A stretch of 61,908 nucleotides of DNA, the filler included, from Candidatus Delongbacteria bacterium (lineage in GTDB: Bacteria; UBA4055), in the NCBI GenBank assembly GCA_016937995.1. It is 6 parts of 6 records of this genome, joined end to end, with 100 filler letters (N's around TTAATTAATTAA, not from the genome) between each part and the next. Parts side by side here need not be neighbours in the genome. Positions count along the whole stretch, not along the records: positions 32,318 to 46,447 come from JAFGVM010000062.1; 5 more parts are not named here. One strand, 5' to 3'. A model generated the notes under the pieces. It saw only the letters and a program-made list of their open reading frames with translations, made no database searches and had not been told where the DNA came from. The translations under genes were made by a program, and so were the position numbers. Positions within the stretch are counted from its first letter, which is position 1, and every line of letters begins with the position of its first letter. Below are positions 4,813 through 46,547 of the stretch, one piece after another.

Positions 4813-4912
4813 NNNNNNNNNNNNNNNNNNNNNNNNNNNNNNNNNNNNNNNNNNNNTTAATTAATTAANNNNNNNNNNNNNNNNNNNNNNNNNNNNNNNN
4901 NNNNNNNNNNNN
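4813..4912. other. Artificial contig linker
   Basis: N-run + TTAATTAATTAA (stops in all six frames) + N-run, 100 nt. Confidence 0.98.
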
Positions 4913-7702: not shown

Positions 7703-8554
7703 TCATTTCAGGCTTCCAATAAAAACTCGATCATTTCCGCCATAATCCCTAATGATCTTAATATCTTTAAATTTGTCCTTAAAGATATTCTTAACAGGTT
7801 CAGCCTGCTCAAAACCGATCTCCAAAAACAGCATACCGTCAGGCTGTAATATTTTTTCAATTATTTCATTTATCCTTCTGTAAAATTTCAAACCGTCACC
7901 TTCATCAGTCAATGCTGTTCTCGGTTCATGGTCCTTTACTTTAGGATCAAGACCATTATAATCTTTTAATGAAATGTACGGAGGGTTAGAAATTACAATA
8001 TCGTGGAGTGACCTTGATGGAGCATTCCTGAACAGATCCCACTTAAAAAATTTTATCTTACCTGAGAGTTCATTTATATCTGCATTTTTTCTAGCCGTAT
8101 CCAGAATTTCATTAGAAATATCGGAGGCAAAAAATAAATTATTCGGACATTCTTTCGCTATAGCTATAGGGATACAACCGCTTCCGGTGCCTATATCCAG
8201 TATTCTAAGATTTTTATCCGATAAATATTTGATAACTTCCTCAACAAGTATCTCTGTGTCATTTCTAGGGATCAAAGTGTGTTCATTTACCATTATCCTG
8301 ACGTTATAGAAATCTTTTTCACCCTTGATATATTGGACCGGTTCATTAAAGGAACTTCTTTTTAGTAATGGTCTTATCTTAGCTAGTTCCTCTTCAGTAA
8401 CTAACCTGTCATACTGCAGATAAAGATCAAGCCTTTTCATACTTAACGCACTTGAAACTATGAGTTCAGCATTTAATCTCGGTTCTTCGATATTGTGTTC
8501 TTTTAGGTAATCTGTAGAGAGGTTTAATATATCTAAAAGTTTTTTATCTGCCAT
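7703..8554 (-). CDS. prmC: Release factor glutamine methyltransferase
   Basis: EPVQYI, LIPR, LDIGTGSG, SNPPY and LEIG motifs. Confidence 0.95.
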   Translation of the reverse strand: MADKKLLDILNLSTDYLKEHNIEEPRLNAELIVSSALSMKRLDLYLQYDRLVTEEELAKIRPLLKRSSFNEPVQYIKGEKDFYNVRIMVNEHTLIPRNDTEILVEEVIKYLSDKNLRILDIGTGSGCIPIAIAKECPNNLFFASDISNEILDTARKNADINELSGKIKFFKWDLFRNAPSRSLHDIVISNPPYISLKDYNGLDPKVKDHEPRTALTDEGDGLKFYRRINEIIEKILQPDGMLFLEIGFEQAEPVKNIFKDKFKDIKIIRDYGGNDRVFIGSLK

Positions 8555-9951
8555 TATATATCGTACTTCCTTATTATCTCATTCAAATTTTGTTTGATCT
8601 GGGAAAATTCATTCTCAAAAATAGTCCTTGAACTTAAATAATATTTTTCGTCTGAAATATATCCGAAAACAGGAGTTTTACTGATCATCCTCATTTCTTT
8701 TGAAAGTTTAGAAACTCCAAGGTCATTCTGCTCTATTGAAACTGCGAGACCTTCAAGTTTTTCAGTAGGTAAAGTCCCGGATCCTGCCTGATCTAGAACA
8801 TTTTCAACTTTTACTTTCCAGTGTTTTGGTACAATTGATTCAATCTGTTCCTTCAATTTTTCAGATTTTTTCTTAAGATCACTTCTTTTTGCTGAAAGTA
8901 ACTTCAGAGTTAAATGACCTGAATTTACAGGGTCCTTTTCAACGAAAATCTTGAGGGTTTCCTCTAAAAGTGCCAATCTTATCTTATCCGTTCTCAATAC
9001 ACGCATCAATGGATTCTTTTTTACTTTTTCTATCAGTTCCTTACTTCCTGCTATGATACCGCATTGCGGTCCGCCAAGAACCTTGTCTCCGCTAAAAGAA
9101 TAAATATCTGCACCATCATTGATAGCTTCCTGGACAGTTGGTTCGTGAGGCAATCCGTATTTATCCAGATCTGAAAAGATCCCGCCTCCCAGATCATAAT
9201 AGAATGGTATATTATGTTTTTTTCCTAGTTCTGCCAGCTCTTTAACAGTAACTTCATCCGTAAATCCTTCAATTCTATAATTTGAAGTATGAACTTTGAC
9301 CAAAGCACCGGTTTTTGTTGTAATTGCATCTTCATAATCAGAAATCTTTGTCTTATTTGTAGAACCGACCTCAAACATCTTTCCACCGGATTTCTTGATC
9401 ACATCAGGCATTCTGAACGACCCGCCGATCTCTACAAGTTCACCGCGGGATACAATGACTTCTTTTCTTTGAGCCAACGTATTAATACATATCATTACTG
9501 CTGCTGCGTTATTATTGACTACCGTTGCCGCTTCAGCACCTGTTATAATACTGATAAGTTCACTTATTTTATCTTCTCTACGACCTCTCTTCCCTGTTTC
9601 AACATTGACCTCAAGGGTTGAATAACCCTGAAGAATACCCTGAAGATTTTCCAGAGCAACTTCTGATAACGGTGCTCTTCCAAGACCTGTATTTAGAACA
9701 ATACCTGTCGCGTTTACAGCATGGCGGGTAAATGGAAGAAATCTTTCTGAAATAGAATCTGATATCTTAGATAAAATATCTTTATCAATACTCTTCCTTT
9801 TATTTTTTAAGATATCACGGCGAACAGTATCCAGTTCATCCTGAATAAGCTTCACCAATATTTCATGCTTATATTTATTCCTCAGTGATACAAACTCATT
9901 ACTTTCAAGAACTTTATCCACTTTAGGTATATTTTTTAATATATTCTGCAT
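8554..9951 (-). CDS. selA: L-seryl-tRNA(Sec) selenium transferase
   Basis: NATGIVLNTGLGRA, VNNNAAA, SRGELVEIGGSFR and FSGDKVLGGPQ (PLP Lys). ATG at 9951 follows an AGGA RBS. Confidence 0.95.
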   Translation of the reverse strand: MQNILKNIPKVDKVLESNEFVSLRNKYKHEILVKLIQDELDTVRRDILKNKRKSIDKDILSKISDSISERFLPFTRHAVNATGIVLNTGLGRAPLSEVALENLQGILQGYSTLEVNVETGKRGRREDKISELISIITGAEAATVVNNNAAAVMICINTLAQRKEVIVSRGELVEIGGSFRMPDVIKKSGGKMFEVGSTNKTKISDYEDAITTKTGALVKVHTSNYRIEGFTDEVTVKELAELGKKHNIPFYYDLGGGIFSDLDKYGLPHEPTVQEAINDGADIYSFSGDKVLGGPQCGIIAGSKELIEKVKKNPLMRVLRTDKIRLALLEETLKIFVEKDPVNSGHLTLKLLSAKRSDLKKKSEKLKEQIESIVPKHWKVKVENVLDQAGSGTLPTEKLEGLAVSIEQNDLGVSKLSKEMRMISKTPVFGYISDEKYYLSSRTIFENEFSQIKQNLNEIIRKYDI

Positions 9952-9967
9952 TGTTCCTACCAAATTT

Positions 9968-16199: not shown

Positions 16200-16299
16200 N
16201 NNNNNNNNNNNNNNNNNNNNNNNNNNNNNNNNNNNNNNNNNNNTTAATTAATTAANNNNNNNNNNNNNNNNNNNNNNNNNNNNNNNNNNNNNNNNNNNN
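16200..16299. other. Artificial contig linker
   Basis: N-TTAATTAATTAA-N. Confidence 0.98.
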
Positions 16300-27599: not shown

Positions 27600-27699
27600 N
27601 NNNNNNNNNNNNNNNNNNNNNNNNNNNNNNNNNNNNNNNNNNNTTAATTAATTAANNNNNNNNNNNNNNNNNNNNNNNNNNNNNNNNNNNNNNNNNNNN
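27600..27699. other. Artificial contig linker
   Basis: N-TTAATTAATTAA-N. Confidence 0.98.
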
Positions 27700-32217: not shown

Positions 32218-32317
32218 NNNNNNNNNNNNNNNNNNNNNNNNNNNNNNNNNNNNNNNNNNNNTTAATTAATTAANNNNNNNNNNNNNNNNNNNNNNNNNNN
32301 NNNNNNNNNNNNNNNNN
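32218..32317. other. Artificial contig linker
   Basis: N-TTAATTAATTAA-N. Confidence 0.98.
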
Positions 32318-32325
32318 CACACATA

Positions 32326-32409
32326 CCCATAACATTGGCAAAACATCAATGGGTTACTTGGATATTTGACTCGCTTAACACCACTGCTTTTTGCCATGAC
32401 CGTTGTGGG
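32326..32409. repeat. attC-like palindromic junction site 1 (84 bp)
   Basis: CCCATAAC-ATTGGCAAAA...TTTTGCCATGACC-GTTGTGGG. Confidence 0.75.
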
Positions 32410-32492
32410 CAATGTGTAATTTGGAAAAACTGATAATACCGGCATATTAAACAGAATAATTAGAAATATAGTCAAATGTAAATTTTATACAT

Positions 32493-33002
32493 TTATTTTT
32501 TTTCTACAATAAGTTTCTTGTGCTTATATACAATTCTGATAAATTCTTTTAATTCTTCTGATTGAGAATCTTTAAAGAATTTCTCTATACTCTTATTGGG
32601 TAAATAGATATAAGCTTTTGCAAAATCTAACTCATATAAACTAATCCCATCTAAAATGAATTTAAATCTTAGATCTACATCATCGGTTTTCTCAAATCCT
32701 TTTTTATAGTACTTATTCAGATAAAACATTTCTATCTCGGATTGAGCTATTTCTTTTAATTGCTCAAACATATCTGAATATGTATTCTTAAAGATAATCT
32801 TTAAATCTTCATCACAATTGAACTTAGTTTTTTTCAAAATAGAGAATTTGTTATCTCTATCTGAATTTGCGATCATTATTTCTCCACTCAATCCTTTTAA
32901 TTCTTTTGAATCATACTTGCCTTTAACAGATAAAAATACGAATACCGTATTGAACAACGATTTGTGATAAAGAATCCTGTATTGGTCTCTTTTATTTGCC
33001 AT
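32493..33002 (-). CDS. Hypothetical protein
   Basis: 169-aa ORF overlapping the end of the upstream frame; GAGG RBS. Confidence 0.7.
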   Translation of the reverse strand: MANKRDQYRILYHKSLFNTVFVFLSVKGKYDSKELKGLSGEIMIANSDRDNKFSILKKTKFNCDEDLKIIFKNTYSDMFEQLKEIAQSEIEMFYLNKYYKKGFEKTDDVDLRFKFILDGISLYELDFAKAYIYLPNKSIEKFFKDSQSEELKEFIRIVYKHKKLIVEKK

Positions 33003-35097
33003 TTACTACCTCACTTTTTTTAATTATTTCTTTCGAACTATTTATGCCTACGACATAATAGAATTTTTTATTTTGTGTTATTGTTGATGTCCAAGTCGTG
33101 TCATTAAAGCTACCACTTGTATCCAATGTGAAATTATTGTACGGGTCATCTGAAGAATATACCTGATAACTATCTGCTCCAGTCACAGAGTTCCAAACCA
33201 GTGTAGTACTCTCAGCTAAATGTTCAATTGAAATTATATTGGGTGCAGACATGTCATCCGATAATATTATAGGATTTCCCGTACTTACAACCTCAGGCTC
33301 AAATCCATACAAAATTGCATTTGCTTTATTATCAAGTATAATTTCGGCATTCCCTTCATATCCAGTTGATGTCTGCATTGCTTTTATATGTAAAGTATTC
33401 CCACTTGTCCAGCTTGTTACGAAATTCCCAAGATTTGCGATTATTACCATTTTTCCGTCAATAATTTCAAGCTTTGAATCTGAATTCGAATCTTTCGATT
33501 GAATCTCATCGGGTCTGCTCTTTATATAGACATCAAATTCTATATCATTTGTATCAATCAGTTCTGTACTGTCATTCGCCTGTAAATGACATATGACTTT
33601 TCTAGGAGTATTCAAAGCTGAAACACTTGATTTTACTTTCTGTAGCTGTTCTTTCTGTTTTGAGTAAATATTATTATCAGGTGGCCACATTTGATCCTGA
33701 TCAACATTCACCATATAGGCATTTGCAACATAGGTATTGTAAACATTATTCCATGATGTACTGTAATCCGAAATATCAAATGATTGGTTTGTTGAATTCC
33801 ATGTAATTACAGAATCACATCCTTGAATACTATCCCCTATTATTTCAGTTGTTGAAAAGTGCGGTTTATTGAATGGCAGCATAACAAGATTCATTCCTGT
33901 TTTCAGGCTAAATACAGCTTGTTCTTCGATATAACCCAATGAAACAAATGAAAAAGAACTATCAGCATTTATAAGATAAGGTTTACTTTCGTCTATATAG
34001 AAATTGTCAATATTTCCAATTTCTGTTAGTGAACTTGTTACCCATATTTTCTCTATATTATCCCAGTAACTTACAGATTCTATCTCTGAATATTTACTAA
34101 TTAAATCACCTGCCTGTGTTAAATCTTCGCCTGAACATAAATTTACTGCTTAAGAAGGTACAGCTAGCCAATTTATTCCTTCCAAACAATCATATTTAAT
34201 TATAGTAACTATATCGCTATAAGTTGTGTCTGCATTAACAATTTCTTGGAGTTTATAAAATTTTCTTGAGGAGGTTACGGATGTACTCCAATTTGTATTG
34301 GAACCACTATATTCAAGAGTCCAGCTACTAAAATCCTGTTCGGGATTATCTGAACTATATAAATTATAGGATGAAGATTTGGCTACACTTGAATAATCGA
34401 AATGAAAATCTACATTACTTCCATTTTCCTCAGGGCTTAAAGAAGTTTTTCGTACAGTTGAATAATTATTGTCGAAGAACTTTGTCAATCCGTTATTTAT
34501 ATAAGTGGCTACCTGTTGCGAACCGATAATTCCTCCTCCGAAAACCATCTGATTCCATCCGTCAATTTCACTTATATAATATGGCTCTACTAAACATACT
34601 GGTATATTTTTACTAGGATCGACAGAGTTCAATACCTCTAAACCTCCTCTCTGACTTATTCCGAAATTAGTAAACCCAATTTTCAATAACTCATGATGTA
34701 TTGCATATGCTAAACTATAACTAATCCACGGTCGGTAATAAATTGTTTTAGTTCCCTGAACCCATGCCCAACTGTTGCTATTAAAATGAATACTAACTGC
34801 TGCATCTGGCTCATATGTATTAATCATTATAGCTCTGTCTCCGTTATCAACATGAGCATCAGTAGTTCTAGTCATTATTACAGTAGCAAGTAAGCTGAGT
34901 AAATTAGTTCGTAGCGTTAAGCCTACCTGTAAATTGATATCTGCTTCATCTGGGTATTCTGTTCCATTTCTACCTAATGCACCTCGGTTTCCAGGTCCTC
35001 CATGTCCAGGGTCTATCAGAATTGTCTGAAACATAACACCCTGAGAAAAAATCAACCCAGTAACAAAAAATACGAGTATGAAAATATAATTCTTCAT
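32992..35097 (-). pseudogene. Secreted N-acetylmuramoyl-L-alanine amidase (Amidase_3) with surface domains, interrupted by an in-frame TAA
   Basis: IDPGHGG, EADIN, SIHFNS and CLVE motifs. ORFs 34150-35097 and 32992-33939 share a frame; the 70 intervening codons are open and the only stop is TAA at 34150-52. Confidence 0.8.
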
Positions 35098-35116
35098 TTT
35101 ACTGCTCCCATTACTT

Positions 35117-36097
35117 TCATAACTTAATCAAATAAATATTCCCGTCATTCATTTCGTAGTACAAAATCATTTTATTATTTGGTGACAGAGTTGGTGAGTA
35201 TTCAAGTTTGTCACTTGTATTTGTTATCTGCTTGAACTTTTTTGAATTAATATCAAATATTGCTATATCGTAGTTTTCAATACTATAATGATTATCTTCT
35301 TCCAAACAGAAAATAATTTTAGTATCATCAAAGCTCCAAGTTGGATTACTACAACTTAATTTCTCATCAAATGGGTGTTTATATTCGCTTTTAATTTTTT
35401 TCTCAATATCCCAAAAACATATTTGATTATAATCTTTGAAAACAATATTATTTTTATTGTATGAAATTTTCGCTGTTACTAGGCTTAATTTAATTTCATC
35501 ACGAATTTCTCCATTCTCATCAATATATTTATCTCCATCAGGTGTTAGTGATACAACAATTCGGTTTTTTTCTTTATTATTCAGTAAATGTGAGTATTCA
35601 CTATTAATTGGTAATATTTTTGATTCGTATTTATAGTTTTTTCTATCAAAAGCTGCAATATACTGCCCCGTTTCAGAATACATCCAAATTGGACTTGTTA
35701 ACCAATCAGATTGAAAAAGTCTTTCAATTGAATAATCTTCAATATTTATGACTGAAATTGATGAAGTCTTTATTCCTTCAATTCTATCTCTAGCAAGAAA
35801 AGCAATGTATTTACTGTCTACAGACCATGTAACAGAATTATAAGTTGTTGCAATATTTAAATTACCAATTTTCTTAAATGCTTTGCCTTTCATATCAGAT
35901 ATATAGATAGAGCCATTTCTTATATACGAGATATATTTACCGTCAGGTGAAAATTTTGGATGTTGGTATGGGTTTTCTTGCGTTCCATCTTTTGTTAATT
36001 GGATACTGCTATATTTTTTAGTATTTACCCCACAACCAGTTATAATTATGCTGATAATTATTGCAAACAGATATAATTTTTTTAAAATTCTAAGCAT
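35117..36097 (-). CDS. TolB-like (PD40) beta-propeller lipoprotein
   Basis: Lipobox ITGC; PKFSPDGKYI, PTWSFDD and PTLSPNN repeats. Confidence 0.85.
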   Translation of the reverse strand: MLRILKKLYLFAIIISIIITGCGVNTKKYSSIQLTKDGTQENPYQHPKFSPDGKYISYIRNGSIYISDMKGKAFKKIGNLNIATTYNSVTWSVDSKYIAFLARDRIEGIKTSSISVINIEDYSIERLFQSDWLTSPIWMYSETGQYIAAFDRKNYKYESKILPINSEYSHLLNNKEKNRIVVSLTPDGDKYIDENGEIRDEIKLSLVTAKISYNKNNIVFKDYNQICFWDIEKKIKSEYKHPFDEKLSCSNPTWSFDDTKIIFCLEEDNHYSIENYDIAIFDINSKKFKQITNTSDKLEYSPTLSPNNKMILYYEMNDGNIYLIKL

Positions 36098-36315
36098 AGC
36101 CCCTTTTTTATTGCTTCTTTATCATGAAAATTACAATAAAACAATATACTGAATATTTTCTTTTTAGTCAATATTTCAAAAATAAATAATTATATGATTT
36201 GACCTGTATTCTTTGCTTGAATAAAGGAACAGAATTTCATATTATTAGGTATGTTATCGATTAATATAAAAATAGATATGCCGGTATTATGAGAAACAGA
36301 GAAATTACACACAGA

Positions 36316-36387
36316 CCCACAACATGGGAAAAATGACACGGCGAGGGGAATGTTATTTGCCGCTCTTTTTTCCCTATCCGTTGTGGG
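36316..36387. repeat. attC-like palindromic junction site 2 (72 bp)
   Basis: CCCACAAC-ATGGGAAAAA...CGGCGA..TTGCCG...TTTTTCCCTATCC-GTTGTGGG. Confidence 0.8.
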
Positions 36388-36582
36388 AAATAGTAATCAG
36401 GAATTCTTGTGGGGGGGGGGAGTCATCTAGAAAAATATGGGATTAATGGTAAATAGAAACATAATAATTTCGTTTGAAAAGGTTAAATTAGGGATTATCT
36501 TTCTGCAATAGGTCAATTCGAAATAAAAATGAGTTTTTATGGAGTTTAGATCAGGTTTTAAATTAAAATATGGAGTTGTGTG

Positions 36583-37425
36583 ATGAATCGTATTTTATAC
36601 TTGTTTGTTCTTGTTTGTTTCACTTTTGGTTATTCAAAAACAATCTACGGTGAATATACTTACACCTACGGAGATGACGAAACTCTGACGACCGCAAAGC
36701 AAAAATGCCAAACTTTAGCCAAAAGAGACGCCGTCGAAAAATTCGCAACTTATATCACAAGTGAAACTGTCATCAGAAATTATCAGACGGAAAGCGACGA
36801 AATAATAGCTAACACAGAAGCTATGATAACAGATGTAAAAACTGTCGAAGAACGAATAGACAAGTCAAATACCACCATTTATTACAAAGTAAGCGCGGAA
36901 GTTGACGAAGAAAAGATCCTCGCGGTGTATAATGAAAGAGAGCGTATAAGGCTCGAGAAGATCGAAGCAGAAAGAAAACTGCAGGCAGACAAACTCGAAG
37001 CTGAAAGGAAAGCAGAAGCCGCCAGAATAGAAGCCGAGAGAAAGGCGCAGGAATTAAAACTTAAAGCCGAAAAGGAAGCTCTGGAAGCCAAACTAAAACA
37101 TGAAAAAGAAATGGCTTCAATAGAACAGGAAACTGAAAAACTTAAACTTTCGCGAGAAATAAATGAGAAGGACAGAAGATTCTGGAAAACTCAAAAATGG
37201 ATTGCGCTCGGAGCATTTGCAGGATCAGCAGCCCTCGGTACCTATTTCAATTTTCAGGGCTCGTCAAATTACGACGACTATAAATCTGCAACAACGACAG
37301 CATCGGCGGATGACCTTTATGATAAAGCTGAAAGCAATTATCTTTACCGGGATGTAACATTCAGCGTATCCGTTCTACCGCTCGGATATTTTTTCTACGC
37401 ATGGTATAAAGAAAGTCAGTATTAA
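36583..37425 (+). CDS. Exported hypothetical protein with coiled-coil linker and hydrophobic C-terminal domain
   Basis: Signal peptide, E/K/A-rich helical segment, aromatic-rich C-terminus. Confidence 0.8.
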   Translation: MNRILYLFVLVCFTFGYSKTIYGEYTYTYGDDETLTTAKQKCQTLAKRDAVEKFATYITSETVIRNYQTESDEIIANTEAMITDVKTVEERIDKSNTTIYYKVSAEVDEEKILAVYNERERIRLEKIEAERKLQADKLEAERKAEAARIEAERKAQELKLKAEKEALEAKLKHEKEMASIEQETEKLKLSREINEKDRRFWKTQKWIALGAFAGSAALGTYFNFQGSSNYDDYKSATTTASADDLYDKAESNYLYRDVTFSVSVLPLGYFFYAWYKESQY

Positions 37426-37443
37426 AAGGAAAGGAAAAGTAAA

Positions 37444-40400
37444 ATGAAAAAATTCTTAGGACTAATAACAATAATAACAGCATTCATAATAATCTGGGCA
37501 TGCTCAGACCTTGAACATTCTAATCCATTTGATTCAAGCTACGGCGATCCGGCTCAGTTAACAAAGCTTGACCTTACGATAGAAAAAATAGACCGCATAA
37601 AGCTCGTCTGGGATGATGATTACTACAGCAAAGATTCAAATTACACTTTCCAGATCGACAGAAAAGTCGGCGAATCCGGCACATGGCAGGAAAAGTATAA
37701 AATATTCAAAAGCAATACTACTTTTTTCACAGACTCGGCAGCAGGCATTAATCAGATGAATTACTACAGAGTAAAAGTGGCTTACGATGAAAATATATCA
37801 GAACCGATTGAGGCCGGAGTGAACAACCCGTTTAATCCGCCGTCAAATATTATAACAAATCGCAAAGACATTCGTACGATTCAGATAAGTTGGGCTGACA
37901 ATTCAAACGGAGAAGATGGCTTCAGGATAGACAGATTTTCTGCAGGTGTCTGGCATGACGGATTTAAGACTGTAGGTCAGAACATAGCATCATGGACTGA
38001 TTCTTCAGCCGTTCTTAACGACAGCATCAGATATAGAGTATGCGGATTTAGAAAAACTTATTCATCTCTTTCAGTCGCAACCCAACTGATAGATAATTTA
38101 GTTCCGGCGCCTTCTAATCTTACAATAAAGCAGAACGATGTCAGCACTTTTGAATTGAACTGGGCAGACAACAGCATAGGCGAAGAAGGCTTTATCATTC
38201 AGAGGAGCATTGACGGAGGCGCATACAGTCAGATAGCGTCTTTACAGGCTAATACAACTACCTATACAGATAATTCGGTCAGCAAGAACAAAAGCCTGAG
38301 CGATGTCAGCTACAGAGTTATGTCTTTTTATGGTACATATCAATCCGATTATGCTGAAACGGCATCAGAAATTGATTTTCCAGCACCGGGTTCGATATCG
38401 TATGAAAAACTTTCAATTTCATCTATAAAGCTGAACTGGTCGGATAACAGCCTTGCAGAAACAGGTTTCAAGATCGAAAAGAAGATCGGGGCCGGCAGCT
38501 GGGCTGAGTATGCGACCGTCGGGGCGAACATAACGACTTGGACTGATACGGCAGCCGAGATAAATCAGAATCTGCAGTACAGGATCTATGGCTATAAAGG
38601 AACGAATACATCTCCGGTAACTGAAAGCTCTGTGATAGATAATGCTTTTCCTGCTCCGTCATCTATAACATATACGAAGATCTCCATTTCTTCGTTAAAA
38701 ATTGACTGGCTCGACAATTCAGTCGGTGAAGACGGCTTTAAGATAGACAGATCTGTTGACGGTACATGGACTACTGCTTATGCAACCGTTGCAGGCAATA
38801 TAAAAACTTATACAGACAGCAACGCTCCGATCAATAAAACCGTTATTTACCGTGTTTACGCATACAAATCATCAAGTGTGTCGGCTTCTGTTTCCACTTT
38901 GTCGATAAACAATACTTTTCCGGCACCTACAAATCCTATTATAACACAGCTTGCTGTCAATTCAGTAAAAATTGACTGGACAGATAATTCTACAGGCGAA
39001 GACGGGTTTAAGATTGATAAAAAGAGCACTACAGGTGTCTGGACTACGGCTTTTGCTTCTGTCGGTGCGAGTATCACAACTTATACAGATACCGCAGCTG
39101 CAATCTCAGACAGCCTGCAATACAGAATTTACGGTTATAAAGGAACAACATATTCAACTTACGCTTATACAAGCGCATCCGACCTTACATTTCCGCCGCC
39201 GACAAATGTAACAGACAGCAGCGTGAGCATTATTTCAATAAAATTGAACTGGGCTGATAACAGCACAGGCGAAACAGGTTTTAAAATTGACAGGTCGGTT
39301 GACGGTGGTGCGTGGGGAATCGCCTATGGTACAGTCGGCGAGAATGTCGTTACATGGACTGATGCCAACGCTCCGATAAATAAAAATATTCAGTACAGAA
39401 TTTACGGTTATACTGCAACTGACGCATCAAGCTATGCTTACTCAAATACGATCGCCAATACTTTTCCGGCTCCGGTTCTAAATACTGTTACTCAACAAAC
39501 AGTAAGCTCTTTCAAGCTTGACTGGTCGGACAATTCAACCGGCGAGGAAGGATTCAAAATCGAGAGAAAAATTGATGATGGTACTTATGCTCAGATAGCT
39601 TCTGTCGGGGCGAATGTAATTACATATACCGACAGCTCGATTAATAAAAAAGGCTACACTACTGTTTACTACAGGATTAGAGCGTTCAAAGGAACTGATT
39701 ATTCAGTTTACAGTGAAAAGACGCAGTTAATTTCTTTTCCTGCACCGACGAATATAAATTATACAAAAACAAGCATCAGTTCTATAACCGTAACTTGGGC
39801 TGACAATTCAAACGGCGAAGACGGTTTCAAGATAGATAAAAAAGTAGGATCTTCTGAATGGATATTAACCTACGGTACCGCATCTGCAAATGCAGTATCT
39901 TGGCTTGATTCAAATGCTGAGCCGAACACATCAATTCAATATAGAGTATATGCCTACAAAGGCAGCAACTCATCAACTGCAAACTACAGCGCAACAATTG
40001 ACAATACATTCCCTGCTCCGCTGAATATTTCAACCGAAAAGCTGACAATATCGTCTATCAAGGTCAATTGGACAGACAATTCAACAGGCGAAACAGGCTT
40101 CATAGTTGACAGAAAAATAGGCGTTGACAGCTGGGCAGCTTACGATACAACCGCGGCAAACGCAGTAACATGGACTGACAATAACGCAGTTATAAATGTA
40201 AATTTACAATACAGGATCAAAGGTTATAAAGACAGCTACTATTCTAATTATCTTGAATCATCTCAGATAAGCAATATCTTCCCGGCTCCCACTAACCTTA
40301 CACTGACTCAGGTAAAATCCAAAACAAAAGCCACTTCAATAAAACTGGACTGGACTGATAATTCCAATGGAGAAGACGGGTTCAAAATCTCAAAAAAAGA

Positions 40401-42180
40401 CGAAGTAGGCAACTGGAATGATCTTTATACTGTCGGAAGCAACATAAAAACATGGACTGATACGAACGCAACGATAAGCGATAGCCTTGCTTACCGAGTA
40501 AAAGGATATAAAGGAACATACTCATCCGGTTACACAACAGCCGATGTAAGCGCTCTAACCTTTCCGCCGCCATCGAATCTCACCTTCACGAAAATAGACT
40601 TGAACTCGATAAGGCTAAATTGGACTGATAACTCAACCGGCGAAGACGGCTTCAAAATTGACAAAAAAATCGGTGACGCAGCTTGGACAGTAGCTTATGG
40701 AACAGTAGCTGTAAACGCAGTAACTTGGACAGACGACAATGCAGATGTAAACCAAAATCTGCAATATAGAGTTTATAGCTATTCAGGACCATTCGTATCC
40801 AATTTTGTAGAAACAACTCTAATTGACAATACTTTCCCTGCTCCGACAAACCTAACAACAACTCAAGCTAGCATAACTACGGCAACAATCGCATGGACTG
40901 ACAACAGCACCGGAGAAGAAAAATTCGAGATCGAAAGAAAATTATCAGCCGATGCAACATATCTAAAAGTAGGCGAAGTGATCGGCAGTGCCACGACGAC
41001 AAAAACATATTCAGATACTACCGTCGTTCCAACAAATACATACGATTACAGAGTAAAAGGAGTATTAGGAACAAATTCATCAGCTTACATAACGAAAACA
41101 GGATATGAAAACATTTTCCCAGCTCCTACGAATCTCGCAGCTACTGTCGAATCCGAAACCTCAATAAAACTCGCTTGGACTGACAATTCTATAGGAGAAG
41201 AAGGTTTTAAAATTGACAGAAAAGTCGGCAGTGCAGGCACATGGACGACTGATTATGCAACAGTAGGATCAAATGAAATTGAATTTACTGACACTGGGCT
41301 CACAGCAGGAATAATATATTATTACAAAGTAAGAGGGTACTGTATTTCAACTTACAGCTATTATACTAACGAAGCGACCAAATTTATTCCTGATATGTCA
41401 GGATTTGTTTTAATACCTATTGGTAATTTTAATATGGGTCAATCGGGGATTGCTAGCGCTGAACCTGAACATATTGTAAATATTACAAAAGAATATTATT
41501 TATCCAAGACCGAATTAACTCAAAAAGAATGGGCTGATATTATGGGTACTAATCCAGCGAGTGGTTATGGTATTGGTGATAATTTCCCAGTCTATTCAGT
41601 CAGCTGGTATTCGGCACTTGTATATTGCAATAAAAGAAGCATCGCTGATGGGCTTTCACCATGTTATAGTATTAGTGGATCAACTGATCCAGCAACTTGG
41701 GGTTCAATTCCCGCTAGCTGGAATACAACTTGGAACGCTGTTGTTTGTGATTTCGATGCTAAAGGATATCGTATCCCTACTGAAGCGGAATGGGAATATG
41801 CTGCACAGCACAATGATAACAGAACATTCCCATGGGGAGAAACTGAGCCTACAAACAGTTACTGCAATTTTAGTAATTATGTCGGAGAAACTACTATTGT
41901 TGGTAATTATCCAAGTGGAAATAATAGCCTTGGCCTTTCCGACATGGCAGGAAATGTAGAAGAATGGGTGTGGGATTGGTATAACTATCCGTACCCAAGC
42001 TCAGAACAAATTGATCCAACAGGACCAGTCGAACCGATAGTTGAACAAGAAGTTAAAATCGCACGTGGCGGAAATTGGGGTGCGAGCCCAAGCCTTGTTG
42101 TCAAATGCGCACAAAGAAGAACGCTTGATCCTTTCTTTGCATCAATAGACACGGGACTGAGAATTGCGAGGACGAAATAA
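37444..42180 (+). CDS. Large lipoprotein: 14 FN3 repeats + C-terminal FGE-sulfatase (SUMF1, C-type lectin fold) domain
   Basis: Lipobox IWAC; 13 W.DNS..E..F repeats plus one degenerate copy; YRIPTEAEWEYAA, DMAGNVEEW and RGGNW motifs. Confidence 0.9.
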   Translation: MKKFLGLITIITAFIIIWACSDLEHSNPFDSSYGDPAQLTKLDLTIEKIDRIKLVWDDDYYSKDSNYTFQIDRKVGESGTWQEKYKIFKSNTTFFTDSAAGINQMNYYRVKVAYDENISEPIEAGVNNPFNPPSNIITNRKDIRTIQISWADNSNGEDGFRIDRFSAGVWHDGFKTVGQNIASWTDSSAVLNDSIRYRVCGFRKTYSSLSVATQLIDNLVPAPSNLTIKQNDVSTFELNWADNSIGEEGFIIQRSIDGGAYSQIASLQANTTTYTDNSVSKNKSLSDVSYRVMSFYGTYQSDYAETASEIDFPAPGSISYEKLSISSIKLNWSDNSLAETGFKIEKKIGAGSWAEYATVGANITTWTDTAAEINQNLQYRIYGYKGTNTSPVTESSVIDNAFPAPSSITYTKISISSLKIDWLDNSVGEDGFKIDRSVDGTWTTAYATVAGNIKTYTDSNAPINKTVIYRVYAYKSSSVSASVSTLSINNTFPAPTNPIITQLAVNSVKIDWTDNSTGEDGFKIDKKSTTGVWTTAFASVGASITTYTDTAAAISDSLQYRIYGYKGTTYSTYAYTSASDLTFPPPTNVTDSSVSIISIKLNWADNSTGETGFKIDRSVDGGAWGIAYGTVGENVVTWTDANAPINKNIQYRIYGYTATDASSYAYSNTIANTFPAPVLNTVTQQTVSSFKLDWSDNSTGEEGFKIERKIDDGTYAQIASVGANVITYTDSSINKKGYTTVYYRIRAFKGTDYSVYSEKTQLISFPAPTNINYTKTSISSITVTWADNSNGEDGFKIDKKVGSSEWILTYGTASANAVSWLDSNAEPNTSIQYRVYAYKGSNSSTANYSATIDNTFPAPLNISTEKLTISSIKVNWTDNSTGETGFIVDRKIGVDSWAAYDTTAANAVTWTDNNAVINVNLQYRIKGYKDSYYSNYLESSQISNIFPAPTNLTLTQVKSKTKATSIKLDWTDNSNGEDGFKISKKDEVGNWNDLYTVGSNIKTWTDTNATISDSLAYRVKGYKGTYSSGYTTADVSALTFPPPSNLTFTKIDLNSIRLNWTDNSTGEDGFKIDKKIGDAAWTVAYGTVAVNAVTWTDDNADVNQNLQYRVYSYSGPFVSNFVETTLIDNTFPAPTNLTTTQASITTATIAWTDNSTGEEKFEIERKLSADATYLKVGEVIGSATTTKTYSDTTVVPTNTYDYRVKGVLGTNSSAYITKTGYENIFPAPTNLAATVESETSIKLAWTDNSIGEEGFKIDRKVGSAGTWTTDYATVGSNEIEFTDTGLTAGIIYYYKVRGYCISTYSYYTNEATKFIPDMSGFVLIPIGNFNMGQSGIASAEPEHIVNITKEYYLSKTELTQKEWADIMGTNPASGYGIGDNFPVYSVSWYSALVYCNKRSIADGLSPCYSISGSTDPATWGSIPASWNTTWNAVVCDFDAKGYRIPTEAEWEYAAQHNDNRTFPWGETEPTNSYCNFSNYVGETTIVGNYPSGNNSLGLSDMAGNVEEWVWDWYNYPYPSSEQIDPTGPVEPIVEQEVKIARGGNWGASPSLVVKCAQRRTLDPFFASIDTGLRIARTK

Positions 42181-42226
42181 TACATAGAAGATAAATAATT
42201 TCTGTAAATTAAATTATAAGGAATAT

Positions 42227-43120
42227 ATGGAATTTCCTAAAAGAGTCGAACAACATATAACTGAAACCAGCAGTTTCAAAATATTCAATAGTGCGATCCC
42301 TAATTCTTGGATTGTAAGAGAAATTTCTGAAAGAGATTATGGTATTGATTGCTATATTGAATTAGTTGATTCAAACAATCAAGTTACTGGAGAATTAATT
42401 TCAATTCAATTAAAAGGGATGCAATCAATTACTTGGACTAAGGAAAACTATTATACTCTATCGGGAATTAAGCTTTCGACAACAAATTACTGGCGATTTT
42501 TTCCAATACCAGTGTTTATTTGTTTAGTTGATCTAAACTCTAAAGAAATATTTTTTAATGCTGCTAAGGAATCGATCAGAAGAGATTTTTTAACATATTC
42601 AAACCAAGATGTTTTTTCTTATAAAATTGAGAAAAAGTGCAAATTATCAATAAGTAATATTCCCAATTTCATACACTCATACTATAAGGAAAAACTTCAT
42701 AATGAGCTACAAATAAATATCATAACATTTATTTCTCATTATCACAAATATCGCAATTTTATTGAAGAGAATATCGGGAACGATTGTTTCATGGGGATCG
42801 AAAAAAGTAGGTTGTTTTATATGAAACACTTATATAATAATACAGAATTTCTTTGTAAATATTTTCAAATTCCGTGGGATCTCAAATGCTTTGATGAATA
42901 TATTAAAATCAGTCAATCAAGGTATGGCAATAATTATTGTTTATATGAAGAACAATTCGAAGAAATATCTTTAAAATTAAATGAATTATTAGCTCCTGTA
43001 ATTCTAAGAATTAAAAATCATATAACGGTAGAGGAAAAAGAATATTGGGCAAAAAATGATTTTGATTTATATAATTATTTGTTCTTAGTTAAGTCAAACG
43101 GAGAAATAGATGCATGGTAA
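42227..43120 (+). CDS. DUF4365-type PD-(D/E)xK nuclease-like protein
   Basis: W..RE..E.DYGID..IEL...TG....IQLK pattern. Confidence 0.8.
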   Translation: MEFPKRVEQHITETSSFKIFNSAIPNSWIVREISERDYGIDCYIELVDSNNQVTGELISIQLKGMQSITWTKENYYTLSGIKLSTTNYWRFFPIPVFICLVDLNSKEIFFNAAKESIRRDFLTYSNQDVFSYKIEKKCKLSISNIPNFIHSYYKEKLHNELQINIITFISHYHKYRNFIEENIGNDCFMGIEKSRLFYMKHLYNNTEFLCKYFQIPWDLKCFDEYIKISQSRYGNNYCLYEEQFEEISLKLNELLAPVILRIKNHITVEEKEYWAKNDFDLYNYLFLVKSNGEIDAW

Positions 43121-43202
43121 CTGATAAAAAGATTTTTTTAGAATGATTTGCTATAATATGATATTCTACCAATATTCCATAATAGTATAAGGAAGGAGTA
43201 AT

Positions 43203-44213
43203 ATGAATGATGTTGAAAAATTGGTAGCTTTCAATAATGTTAGAAGTTACTTGAATCAAGAAGACCAAAAATATTTATTATCAAAGCTTTCTATCGATCA
43301 GACTAATTTAACTCATCGACTTAGGGGGCTTAATGTACAAAATGAATTCTTCACAATCCAACATTTGCTTGGATCTTGTAATGATATTCTTTCGTTTGAT
43401 GAAAGTACTTCTGTCTTGACTAAATCATATTCGCCTGATTCTTGTTTGGTTCTCAAAAACAATCAGAAAATGTTTGTTGAAATTAAGAGCAAAGATGAAT
43501 TTGAATTTAAAATAAGTGGAGGGAATCTTCAAAAACGAATTGATTTTGCAAATAATTTTGGGTATAAGCTTTATTTTGCTGTTAAACTTAAAAGTTTTTG
43601 GGGGCTATATTCGAGCGAATATTTGAAATCAAAGAACGGTAAATTAAAATTTCCAGAGGACTATTTAAATTCTGAATTTGAAACAATGTTTGGTAGCAAA
43701 TTAATAATATTACCAAAAGGTATTAAAGTTAAAAGTTTTTACTCTAAAACAGAAGATAGTTTAATGCAAATTAGGCACGAAAATTTTGGCAATCTTTACA
43801 AGTATCAATTTTTTTTCAATGACAATTTAATCTTTGATATAAATAAATCTAATGAAAATGAAGCAGCCATTAGTATAATTTTAGAAGCTCTACACAATGA
43901 AATGTCAAATCAATCACAAAACATCGAAGATTTGGGCAATGGAGAGACCTTAATAACTGAAATGTTAACGGACAATACTTTTTTCTACGATTATAGTTTT
44001 CTGTTAGCTCCCATAAATCACGCTCAATCTGATTTGGGATTTATTATGGACAATACATCTTTTTTTAAATATATCGTTCAACAAAAAGGAAAGTCACCTG
44101 TAACGAAAGATTCACTTTATAGGATATTGGATTTTTTGCATAAAAAAGGCATAACGATAATTATATCTAAATTAATCGAACAAAAAGGGGACTTTGTTGA
44201 AAAAATATTATAA
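43203..44213 (+). CDS. Putative PD-(D/E)xK nuclease-fold protein
   Basis: SPD...FVEIK motif. Confidence 0.6.
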   Translation: MNDVEKLVAFNNVRSYLNQEDQKYLLSKLSIDQTNLTHRLRGLNVQNEFFTIQHLLGSCNDILSFDESTSVLTKSYSPDSCLVLKNNQKMFVEIKSKDEFEFKISGGNLQKRIDFANNFGYKLYFAVKLKSFWGLYSSEYLKSKNGKLKFPEDYLNSEFETMFGSKLIILPKGIKVKSFYSKTEDSLMQIRHENFGNLYKYQFFFNDNLIFDINKSNENEAAISIILEALHNEMSNQSQNIEDLGNGETLITEMLTDNTFFYDYSFLLAPINHAQSDLGFIMDNTSFFKYIVQQKGKSPVTKDSLYRILDFLHKKGITIIISKLIEQKGDFVEKIL

Positions 44214-44428
44214 ATACAAAGTATTTCTTCCATAAAATAGATATCATTTCACTCAATTTAAATTAATTTTGAAATACATGAAAAAAACAAACTCAATAAT
44301 CCTTTTCAAACAGAAACTCAAAACAGAGGCGTACGAAAAAATCGTACATCTGAATATTACAAAGTATTTTTATATGAACAAAATTTAAGTATTCAAATAG
44401 AATTAGAAAACTAACATCGGAATTTATT

Positions 44429-46078
44429 ATGCCAGATCAGAATTTGCACGAATTATTGACCGACCTCATCCAAACATGGGAAAACGAGGTTATTGAGTTT
44501 AAGGAAGTGAATGATAACTTTCCGACTTCGGATATCGGGAAGTATTTTTCCGCTTTATCGAATGAAGCGAACTTGAGAGATAAAGAGCATGCTTGGCTTG
44601 TATTCGGCGTTAATAATAAAATGAGGAAAATTGTCGGTACTGATTACAGAAATGAGGCTGACAGACTTCAAAGCTTGAAAATGCAGATCTCACAGAATAC
44701 TGAACCGAGTATTACATTTAGAAATATTCACGAAGTGACTGTTGAAGGTCACAGAGTGGTTTTATTAGAAATTCCTTCCGCACCGGTTGGTATTCCTATC
44801 TCTTGGAACGGACATTACTATTCCCGTTCAGGTGAAAGTTTGGTTTCTCTCGGATTAGACAAGCTTGATGAGATCAGGAATCAGACTTCGGCATCTGACT
44901 GGACGGCTAAAGTTATTGATGAAGCTACGCTTGAGCATCTTGATCCGGAAGCGATTGAAAAAGCACGGGAGGCTTATGCGAAAAAGTATTCGAACCGTTT
45001 TACTGATTCCGAGATTAAAAAATGGTCTGTTCCCGTTTTTCTCGACAGAGCAAGATTAACTTTATCCGGTAAGATCACGAGAAGCACTTTAATACTTCTC
45101 GGTAAAAAAGAATCCTCTCATTTACTTCTACCTTATCCTGCTCAGATTACTTGGAAGCTCGTGGATAAAGTCAAAGCTTATGAACATTTCGCACCGCCTT
45201 TTTTATTGAGTACTTCTGAGCTTTATCTGAAGATAAGAAACTATCAGATCAGAATTCTGCCGGAAAATAGCCTAATTCCCGTAGAAGTTTCAAAATATGA
45301 CAGAAAAGTCGTCCTCGAAGCTCTTCATAACTGCATCGCGCATCAGGATTATACAAAGAATGCCCGAATCCTTGTAACTGAGCATCAGGATAAGTTAACA
45401 TTTGAGAACGACGGCGGATTCTATGAGGGTAGTCCGGATGATTACATAACAGGCGATAAAACACCTCGCCATTACCGCAATTCATTTCTCGCTCAAGCTA
45501 TGTCAGAACTGAATATGATAGACACAATGGGATACGGTATTCACCAAATGAACACTGTTCAGGCGAAAAGATATTTCCCTTTACCCGATTACGATCTTTC
45601 AGAAAAAGGTGTTGTTAAATTAACCATTCACGGCAAAGTATTTGATCCGGAATACAGTAAACTGCTCATACAGAATCAGGATCTTTCTTTAGAGGATATT
45701 ATTGCTTTGGACAGAGTACAGAAACTGCTTCCTTTGACTGATGAAATGATTAAAAGGTTGAGAAAGGCACAGCTTATTGAAGGCAGAAAGCCGAATTTTC
45801 ACATATCGTTGAAAGTAGCTACGGTGGCAGACAGAAAAGCTGAATATATAAAAACTAAAGGTTTTGATGACGCTTATTGTAAAGACCTGATCCTTGAGTA
45901 CATAAGAAAGTGGGGAGAAATATCACGCAAACAGGCAGAGGATTTACTTTGGGATAAGCTACCTGACATACTTGATGACAAAGCTAAATTCGTTAAGGTT
46001 ACAAACCTGTTGCAAAGCCTAAAAAAAGAAGGTAAGATAGTATTGGGTAAAGCAAAAAAATGGAAATTGAATTTATGA
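44429..46078 (+). CDS. AlbA_2/Schlafen domain + HATPase_c_4 + C-terminal winged-helix protein
   Basis: ENEVIEFKE, SALSN, LVFGV, EALHNCIAHQDY, YRN and GYGI motifs. Confidence 0.88.
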   Translation: MPDQNLHELLTDLIQTWENEVIEFKEVNDNFPTSDIGKYFSALSNEANLRDKEHAWLVFGVNNKMRKIVGTDYRNEADRLQSLKMQISQNTEPSITFRNIHEVTVEGHRVVLLEIPSAPVGIPISWNGHYYSRSGESLVSLGLDKLDEIRNQTSASDWTAKVIDEATLEHLDPEAIEKAREAYAKKYSNRFTDSEIKKWSVPVFLDRARLTLSGKITRSTLILLGKKESSHLLLPYPAQITWKLVDKVKAYEHFAPPFLLSTSELYLKIRNYQIRILPENSLIPVEVSKYDRKVVLEALHNCIAHQDYTKNARILVTEHQDKLTFENDGGFYEGSPDDYITGDKTPRHYRNSFLAQAMSELNMIDTMGYGIHQMNTVQAKRYFPLPDYDLSEKGVVKLTIHGKVFDPEYSKLLIQNQDLSLEDIIALDRVQKLLPLTDEMIKRLRKAQLIEGRKPNFHISLKVATVADRKAEYIKTKGFDDAYCKDLILEYIRKWGEISRKQAEDLLWDKLPDILDDKAKFVKVTNLLQSLKKEGKIVLGKAKKWKLNL

Positions 46079-46159
46079 GAACTTATGAGAACTCTTATGC
46101 GTACTACTTCACATTTTGTAGCTAAAAATTATGAGAACTTTATGAGAACTTATGAGAAG
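46073..46159 (+). repeat. Cluster of TTATGAGAAC decamers
   Basis: Perfect copies at 46073, 46083, 46129 and 46140; variants at 46095 and 46150. Confidence 0.85.
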
Positions 46160-46312
46160 TATGAAAGAATCGTACAACTGCAGAAAGATAATCCCAAAAT
46201 AAAACTCGAACCATTGGAGCGCGAATTAAATAAAGCTAAAAAGTGTATAAAGTACTCGGAGATAAGTAAATGAGAAGACTCCCCCCCCCATATAGTGACT
46301 GATTACTACTAT

Positions 46313-46384
46313 CCCACAACATTGGAAAAATGACACGGCGAGGGGAATGTTATTTGCCGCGCTTTTTTCCATGACCGTTGTGGG
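46313..46384. repeat. attC-like palindromic junction site 3 (72 bp)
   Basis: CCCACAAC-ATTGGAAAAA...TTTTTCCATGACC-GTTGTGGG; near-identical to site 2. Confidence 0.8.
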
Positions 46385-46447
46385 AAATAGTAATCAGTAA
46401 TTCTTGTAGGGTTTATTGAGCTTTCTTTATAATTCTGCCACCGGCGG

Positions 46448-46547
46448 NNNNNNNNNNNNNNNNNNNNNNNNNNNNNNNNNNNNNNNNNNNNTTAATTAAT
46501 TAANNNNNNNNNNNNNNNNNNNNNNNNNNNNNNNNNNNNNNNNNNNN
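46448..46547. other. Artificial contig linker
   Basis: N-TTAATTAATTAA-N. Confidence 0.98.

Follow-up and report, generated by a model that had tools for sequence, protein, structure and literature searches.

Background

CALINs, attC-site clusters that have no integron integrase, are defined as at least two clustered attC sites with no IntI nearby (PMC9024848), and here we describe an array of attC-like sites of this kind, with an additional structure at the ends of its cassettes, from a 61,908-nucleotide stretch of DNA (hereafter the window) of a Candidatus Delongbacteria bacterium (GCA_016937995.1). In published descriptions the attC site is 57-141 bp long and consists of an R box, in which AAC/GTT is conserved, an L box set off by an unpaired spacer, and a variable terminal structure (PMC5027507, PMC3053210). 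The R box of classical cassettes is given as 7 bp (PMC5027507, PMC5371416), R'' is not required to pair with R' at the variable 4 bp of the latter within an array (PMC5371416), and the single- or double-stranded form of cassettes is described as not known (PMC5027507).

The closest described systems are the sedentary chromosomal integrons and CALINs, such as the Vibrio arrays of VCR sites. Like these, the arrays studied here hold mostly co-oriented cassettes between closely similar AAC...GTT hairpin sites, have variable R' bases that are owned by the next cassette, break draft assemblies, and carry toxin-antitoxin pairs, acetyltransferases and genes of unknown function. Unlike these, they have no linked integrase or attI, their unpaired spacer is 2x5 nt, the ends of their cassettes pair over 15-38 bp beyond the spacer side, and two cassettes of 4 and 10 kb carry four to five genes. 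A crossover at or inside GTT, with the variable bases of R' owned by the next cassette, is a textbook property of integron arrays.

The region in question is probably a fragment of an integron-type gene-cassette array of an uncultured member of the Delongbacteria, in which each of two modules, noticed in an initial annotation for their matched inverted ends, is one cassette whose ends would form an outer helix when the cassette is folded as a circle. The evidence lies in the architecture of the sites, the position of the crossover, end matching that follows the cassette, and a gain in folding energy when the two ends of a cassette are rejoined. With three sites on the 14.1-kb contig in the window and up to nine in a related locus (L010), the array falls under the definition of a CALIN; it is not a complete integron, which would have an IntI (TIGR02249) and an attI adjoining the array. 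More tentatively, the sites may belong to a distinct class of attC with a third, outer helix that is built from the two ends of one cassette, changes in concert at both, and grows in length with the size of the cassette.

Sites and cassette ends in the window

Both modules lie on a single contig of 14,130 bp (32318-46447), each end of which is at or beside a copy of the site. We searched for sites with a covariance model, R1, built from the sites of the related loci described below; in the following list of features the end types of cassettes 1 and 2 are called A and B.

32318..32325, plus strand: last 8 nt of the preceding cassette (CACACATA), cut by the contig end; resembles an A-type right end
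32326..32409, plus strand: site 1, attC-like hairpin, CCCATAAC-AT-TGGCAAAA...TTTTGCCA-TGACC-GTTGTGGG; 62.5 bits with model R1
32403..36380, plus strand: cassette 1 (module 1), 3978 bp from G|TT to G|TT; repeat spacing 3978
32402..32447, plus strand: left end of cassette 1, with R' GTTGTGGG, linker CAA, block 2 TGTGTAATTT, N10 and block 3 ATAATACCGGCATAT
36276..36323, minus strand: right end of cassette 1, inverted, GTTGTGGG-TCTG-TGTGTAATTT-N11-ATAATACCGGCATAT; terminates in R'' CCCACAAC
36316..36387, plus strand: site 2, hybrid A|B attC-like hairpin; 65 bits with model R1
36381..46377, plus strand: cassette 2 (module 2), 9997 bp; repeat spacing 9997
36380..36424, plus strand: left end of cassette 2, with GTTGTGGG, AAA, TAGTAATCAG, N9 and T-G10-AGTC
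46277..46320, minus strand: right end of cassette 2, inverted, GTTGTGGG-ATAG-TAGTAATCAG-N8-T-G9-AGTC
36491..36507, plus strand: cassette 2, fourth block; 17 nt that match 46179-46195 perfectly in inverted orientation
46179..46195, minus strand: cassette 2, counterpart of its fourth block; 17 nt that match 36491-36507 perfectly in inverted orientation
46313..46384, plus strand: site 3, attC-like hairpin of type B|B'; 76.2 bits with model R1
46378..46447, plus strand: start of cassette 3, with R box and block 2 as in type B and block 3 GGTTTATTGAGC; cut by the contig end

The three sites, 72-84 bp long, run from CCCAYAAC and AT to TRWCC and GTTGTGGG; between these lie two complementary stem arms, the first of 8 nt, around a variable middle. 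Folded as single strands, they form an outer (R) stem of 8-9 bp, a 2x5 internal loop, an inner (L) stem of 6-8 bp and a large loop, and the inner stem carries paired substitutions across the three sites (GGGAAAAA/TTTTTCCC, TGGAAAAA/TTTTCCA and TGGCAAAA/TTTTGCCA). When 33 sites were aligned, AAC and GTT were invariant in all 33, and the only other invariant positions were parts of the L box and the spacer. Six pairs of the L box were intact in every one of the 33 sequences, three of them with changes on both sides. The RYYY/RRRY flanks of the canonical boxes fit loosely, with GTTAGGG the better and GTTGTGG the poorer fit. Site length is 70-86 bp with one site of 156 bp, so that 34 of 35 sites fall within the attC range of 57-141 bp; the long site (L012 1158-1313) has an insertion of about 80 nt in its variable loop and scores 37 bits with model R1. 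In this layout of R box, spacer, L box and variable loop the sites match the definition of attC. An Rfam search of the contig gave only a sub-threshold snoRNA match and no matching family.

The three-block inverted ends that the initial annotation had reported at both modules are present with the sequences claimed. The 15-mer block 3 of module 1 has two copies in the window, one per strand, and the patterns of R box plus block 2 have two and three copies, with none expected from shuffled sequence in either case (100 shuffles for the 15-mer). Every end block lies outside open reading frames (ORFs), and module 2 has its fourth inverted block about 110-125 nt inside each end. The flanks of the three sites had been called A|A, A|B and B|B. 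Site 2 is A|B as described, whereas site 3 proves to be B|B', with a different block 3; at site 1 the A|A call comes from CACACA alone, since only 8 nt of the module to its left are visible. Block 3 of the truncated third cassette (GGTTTATTGAGC) pairs with a right end present in the related locus L007. This B' end, seen in the window as the left end of the third cassette (46377-46420), occurs in L007 (2960 and 9360) as the right end of one cassette and as the left end of another four cassettes away.

Cassette ends match within the cassette and the crossover lies at or inside GTT

The matching of cassette ends was studied in a wider sample. A two-sided pattern search returned two matches in the genome collection, one of them a chance match in a coding region and the other L001, a 4.5-kb contig (C48) of the metagenome-assembled genome (MAG) G001; in the metagenome collection it returned seven loci (L006-L012), all of the same site family. 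With a relaxed expression, these eight related loci proved to be dense arrays with 33 sites. Model R1 found 35 full sites on the window contig and in the eight loci, together with one truncated site and one weak outlier, and no site on the other contigs of the window. Sites are spaced 0.6-9.9 kb apart with a single polarity within each array, and they delimit a sample of 26 complete cassettes with about 18 distinct end types.

In all of the 24 cassettes compared, the five bases outward of GTT and AAC were identical, in inverted orientation, at both ends of the cassette, whereas the same bases agreed across the two flanks of one site in 9 of 31 sites and in 124 of 552 random left-right pairings. 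Two further cassettes found with the model (in L008 and L012) also have matching ends, as judged by eye. The five bases after GTT take at least ten forms (GTGGG, AGGGG, ATGGG, GTACG, AGCTG, AGCCT, AGCAT, ACAAG, AGAGC and GTGTG). The proposal that end types follow the module rather than the site, and do not pair at random, is thus borne out.

The position of the crossover can be read from pairs of related loci. In L009 and L010 the leader and the first site are about 90% identical, homology stops at GTT(A), and unrelated cassettes follow; between L007 and L010 the homology of a cassette plus its site stops at GTTAG. These boundaries show that the crossover lies at or inside GTT. Because recombination would cross there, the sequence outward of GTT and AAC would travel with the cassette, and for this reason the ends of a cassette match each other and not their neighbors across the site.

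The part of the end match that falls in the R box is the known signature of cassettes; what is unusual is the remainder. The R box is followed first by an unpaired linker of 3-5 nt and then by a cassette-specific block of 8-12 nt, shared by both ends. Some types have third and fourth blocks (A and B in the window, type C over about 90 nt, and type B in L006), and the commonest type of site, C|C, is a symmetric palindrome of about 190 bp. As had been suggested, the blocks are specific to the cassette, with R-box bases and block 2 matched within each cassette and different between cassettes. The asymmetry of 3 and 4 nt in the linkers, described as conserved from the two modules, does not hold in general: the left linker is mostly 4 nt (CAAT or AAAT) and the right linker, read inverted, is 4 or 5 nt (mostly CTGT, TCTGT or TATGT). 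The local match score beyond the R box is 10.8 for the two ends of one cassette, 6.7 for flanks across a single site and 6.4 in cross pairs. An outer match is nearly absent from one cassette, L010 6785-8075.

Folding of the rejoined cassette junction

To represent the excised circle, the right end of each cassette, its 3' site and its own left end were joined and folded with DNA parameters. Rejoined junctions have a mean energy of -24.9 kcal/mol with 22 outer pairs, as against -14.6 kcal/mol and 10.2 outer pairs for the junctions as they are found in the array and -13.0 kcal/mol and 9.2 outer pairs for junctions made with the left ends of other cassettes. The rejoined junction is the better one in 24 of 26 cassettes (Wilcoxon p = 5.7e-7), the two exceptions being at sites with C-type ends on both flanks, and the hybrid sites of the array fold no better than random pairings (p = 0.13). 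The suggestion that an excised circle would form one long hairpin is therefore supported by computed folding, and the two window cassettes, for which it was made, give the strongest junctions, at -40.1 and -43.1 kcal/mol with 33 and 32 outer pairs.

In its R box, unpaired spacer, L box, variable terminal structure and crossover at a conserved triplet, the site resembles the classical attC, or 59-base element. It differs in having an extra helix to which both ends of one cassette contribute, set behind a mismatched linker that is conserved (left, CAAT or AAAT; right, ACAG or ACAGA). This helix can form only in an excised circle or by long-range pairing.

Related end types differ at both ends. 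Block 2 is TGTGTAATTT in the A type of the window and TGTGTAATTG in L009, and the G run is followed by AGTC in the B type of the window and by TAAGCCAAATAGCCAT in L006. Such paired differences point to the two ends of a cassette changing in concert.

As a control we used an integron linked to an annotated integron integrase, on plasmid pB of Kovacikia minuta, with four cassettes. Its sites were placed by eye and with coordinate windows; a strict RYYYAAC/GTTRRRY scan of the plasmid gave no output. The plasmid resembles the studied family in its R-box sequences (GTTAGCTG...) and in the same cassette-wise matching of the R box, and its IntI is 60% identical to the relatives of an integrase fragment found in the MAG that holds L001. 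It differs in that the match between a cassette's own ends stops 4-8 bases beyond GTT with no second block (n=4), and its outer scores of 4-8 (n=4) are at the level of random pairs in the studied family. Together with the 7-bp R box of the literature, this agrees with the contrast to classical cassettes, with about 7 bp of end complementarity, that had been drawn from the window. Our literature search, which did not extend to supplementary files, returned no paper on pairing of cassette ends beyond the R box, none combining Delongbacteria with integrons and none combining attC with type IX secretion. As far as this literature and the one control go, the outer helix is an undescribed variant.

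A mechanism may be outlined as follows. Cassettes would be excised as circles by recombination between two sites, with a tyrosine recombinase of the IntI kind acting on the folded strand. Excision would make the two ends of the cassette contiguous, giving one long imperfect hairpin with 15-38 extra bp that would consist of three helices, namely the outer helix, the R box and the L box. The outer helix may be under selection because it would stabilize the folded site of the excised cassette and favor re-insertion, the hybrid sites of the array being poor folders.

Assembly support and the spread of the array family

The window joins six draft contigs through five artificial linkers, so that ORFs or repeats spanning a linker are meaningless and the contigs are otherwise unrelated.

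4813-4912, 16200-16299, 27600-27699, 32218-32317 and 46448-46547: artificial 100-nt linkers (44 N, TTAATTAATTAA, 44 N)

The array contig is assigned to the Delongbacteria genome by binning only. On a neighboring contig, the SelA gene (8554-9963) has best named relatives labeled "Candidatus Delongbacteria bacterium" at 84-86% identity. In an independent assembly of the probable source run, each module lies with both its ends on one contig (32375-36325 and 36334-46322), and the inverted ends are for this reason not an artefact of the MAG assembly. Those contigs end at sites, and the adjacency and order of modules 1 and 2 come from the MAG contig alone. In run X1, word depth is about 14 over the modules and 80 to about 250 over the site segments, which suggests many more cassettes than the three junctions seen here, to which other organisms may contribute. 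The same run also holds a 1434-nt contig with a depth of about 60 that extends from site 3 to a B-type right end and suggests a short multi-copy cassette adjoining module 2.

The sites of L001 are close to site 1 of the window, and within the phylum around G001 sites occur in one of nine genomes, only on contig C48. The leader DNA of L009 was found in none of these nine genomes, nor was the CdaA of the window, bar one weak match. Accordingly, G001 is probably not of the window's phylum, or else contig C48 is mis-binned; the alternative to mis-binning is an array family that crosses phyla. In the viral collection, the loose pattern had 61 single matches; L-box pairing was scored in all 61, four had at least 6/8 pairs, and the one perfectly paired match (L067), the only one run with model R1, scored 22.6 bits. 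On this partial check we set the viral matches aside as chance.

The first sites of L009 and L010 are directly preceded by a non-coding leader (L009 6522-7102, minus strand; L010 1-203), which has a length of 270 nt or more (in L009 about 580 nt) and is about 90% identical between these two metagenomes. An attI-like site or a promoter could lie within it. Upstream of the leader, L009 has Endonuclease_NS and methyltransferase genes and no integrase.

Cargo of the cassettes

Cassettes range from 0.56 to 9.9 kb with a median of 1.4 kb, and most have a single ORF of at least 90 aa. The coding content of the two complete window cassettes is as follows.

Cassette 1, with four ORFs, each on the minus strand: proteins of 169 aa and 315 aa, an Amidase_3 protein (315 aa) and a PD40 beta-propeller protein (326 aa)
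Cassette 2, with five main ORFs, each on the plus strand: proteins of 281 aa and 1578 aa, a DUF4365 protein, an Hjc-like nuclease and a Schlafen AlbA_2/HATPase_c_4 protein

The 1578-aa protein (37444-42180) has about 11 tandem repeats of 270-282 nt (about 91 aa) of fn3 type and a C-terminal domain of FGE-sulfatase type; FGE-ended proteins recur in L009 (3460-4920) and L006 (6143-6877). No reverse transcriptase was found on the window contig (32318-46447), and PADLOC gave only weak matches for the eight module proteins. The related loci carry toxin-antitoxin components (ParD/ParE and HicB), GNAT acetyltransferases, methyltransferases and enzymes of the Mrr, NUDIX and HAD kinds; many of their proteins have a type IX secretion tail, and a caspase and FGE-domain proteins are also present. 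Of this cargo, the toxin-antitoxin components, acetyltransferases, methyltransferases, Mrr, NUDIX and secreted proteins are typical of chromosomal integrons.

The main ORF lies on the array strand in 23 of 26 cassettes, counting as co-oriented L010 2654-3818, which was assigned separately, with its stop codon inside the site. The three cassettes with genes on the opposite strand are cassette 1 of the window, L007 4760-7208 and L009 5675-3054.

The recombinase and points against the integron interpretation

Pieces of IntI-like genes do occur in related material. In MAG G001 an open frame of 52 aa, located where another contig ends, matches integron-integrase models only; the stretch G001:C90:3406-3600 is 74% identical to a full-length relative over residues 1-65 of the latter, with three stop codons. 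In a second MAG, G004:C95:31798-31905 encodes a 52-aa C-terminal frame 86% identical to a full-length IntI. Full-length relatives of the G001 fragment (321-327 aa) score 460-469 bits on TIGR02249, for which the cut-off is 265, and Marinimicrobia, KSB1, Latescibacterota and Calditrichota are among the groups with MAGs that have relatives named integron integrase. No relative among the 120 listed carries the name Delongbacteria, and the viral contigs gave one partial match only. An IntI-type enzyme is thus plausible from these sequences; it is unlinked to the arrays, and only broken IntI-like fragments were found, on other contigs.

Several observations weigh against the reading of the region as an integron-type array. 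No integrase or recombinase gene is present in the window or in the eight related loci, which in draft contigs may be an effect of assembly, and the IntI-like pieces just described are broken fragments on other contigs of other MAGs (G001 and G004). The unpaired spacer is AT versus TGACC, or 2x5 nt, where canonical attC has 5-6 nt per arm, and the extrahelical bases could not be placed confidently, with a possible bulged A beyond the L box. The hybrid sites of the array pair poorly in the R box, with a mean of 3.1 of 5 variable bases, so that the start of excision is hard to explain. The two window cassettes, with 4 and 5 genes on 4 and 10 kb, are far above the usual single ORF. No excised circle, deletion or alternative order was seen in the assembled contigs of up to three runs, which break at sites and make for a weak check of circles, inversion and adjacency. 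Joints listed from them had short sides of 20-38 nt, or joined only conserved parts of the site through a different loop, and are read as other members of the site family rather than as circle junctions.

The sample itself also bears on the interpretation. Seven of the 26 cassettes share one end type (C), and the cassettes are consequently not independent samples. Among these 26 non-independent cassettes, the longer ones tend to have more outer pairs (rho 0.51, p 0.008), a correlation that a purely local circle hairpin does not predict and that could mean that the ends pair across the cassette. Because of this correlation we considered a panhandle, in which the ends are paired across the cassette within the array; the present data do not distinguish it from the circle.

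Alternative explanations

The same layout might be served by a recombinase other than IntI, for example a short enzyme of Xer type, in which case the arrays would be integron-like rather than integrons. We consider this unlikely, though a live alternative. No IntI is linked to any array, and both the 2x5 spacer and the outer helix depart from canonical attC, but the invariant AAC/GTT and the arrangement of R box, L box and loop are features of IntI substrates as described in PMC5027507, an IntI-type N-terminal fragment is present in the MAG with L001, and genuine IntI is common in related candidate phyla (Marinimicrobia, KSB1, Latescibacterota and Calditrichota).

Modules with inverted ends of 46-49 bp and no recombinase of their own also resemble non-autonomous transposons, mobilized by a transposase in trans and inserted beside a hairpin target, an explanation that we regard as improbable. 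Between modules the ends share only GTT and a common R-box variant, all of the invariant sequence lies in the spacer, and with at least 18 end types a single transposase would have to recognize unrelated sequences. Additionally, the boundaries are exactly at GTT, and neither target-site duplications nor a transposase were seen.

Inversion of the modules, as had been suggested for the window, would make them segments flipped between their inverted ends in the manner of a shufflon. Shufflons and other multiple-inversion systems likewise have segments with inverted copies of a short core at their flanks, and here inverted repeats flank every segment and genes lie on the opposite strand in 3 of 26 cassettes. 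Unlike shufflons, each junction is a complete hairpin site of fixed polarity and the ends are segment-specific. Cassettes with opposite genes are still flanked by sites of the same polarity, 23 of 26 main ORFs lie on the array strand, flipping would switch nothing inside or outside the module, invertase genes were not found, and the contigs of up to three runs showed no joint that changes strand, a weak test. Flipping is thus without evidence, and we give this explanation very little credence.

That the sites are passive palindromic repeats, such as repetitive extragenic palindromic (REP) sequences or miniature inverted-repeat transposable elements (MITEs), or terminators between genes that are not mobile units, would suit their palindromic, intergenic and multi-copy nature, their depth of up to about 250 against about 14 in the modules and the symmetric C|C palindrome, but is most improbable given that flank matching tracks the cassette (24/24) and not the site (9/31), that in two metagenomes one leader precedes different cassettes and the break falls at GTT, and that R-box variants always form complementary pairs across the cassette.

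Significance

If the integron interpretation with its outer helix holds, conservation of the helix would be natural evidence of the excised cassette acting as a folded hairpin, because the helix exists only outside the array. The 15-38 extra bp that each of roughly 18 unrelated end types keeps, and that are possible only between the two ends of one cassette, would then document through natural covariation that selection acts on a form that is excised or paired at its ends, and the finding touches two open questions of integron biology, the form of the excised cassette and the origin of attC sites. The outer helix may also permit the movement of multi-gene cassettes of 4-10 kb, whether the enzyme is a canonical IntI or not, and, should it make insertion more efficient, designers of structure-specific recombination tools could use it as an element. 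For the organisms themselves, the arrays would explain why these accessory regions are shattered in metagenome assemblies, and they would extend integron-type arrays to the Delongbacteria and their relatives, with cassettes of up to 10 kb that carry nuclease- and Schlafen-type genes.

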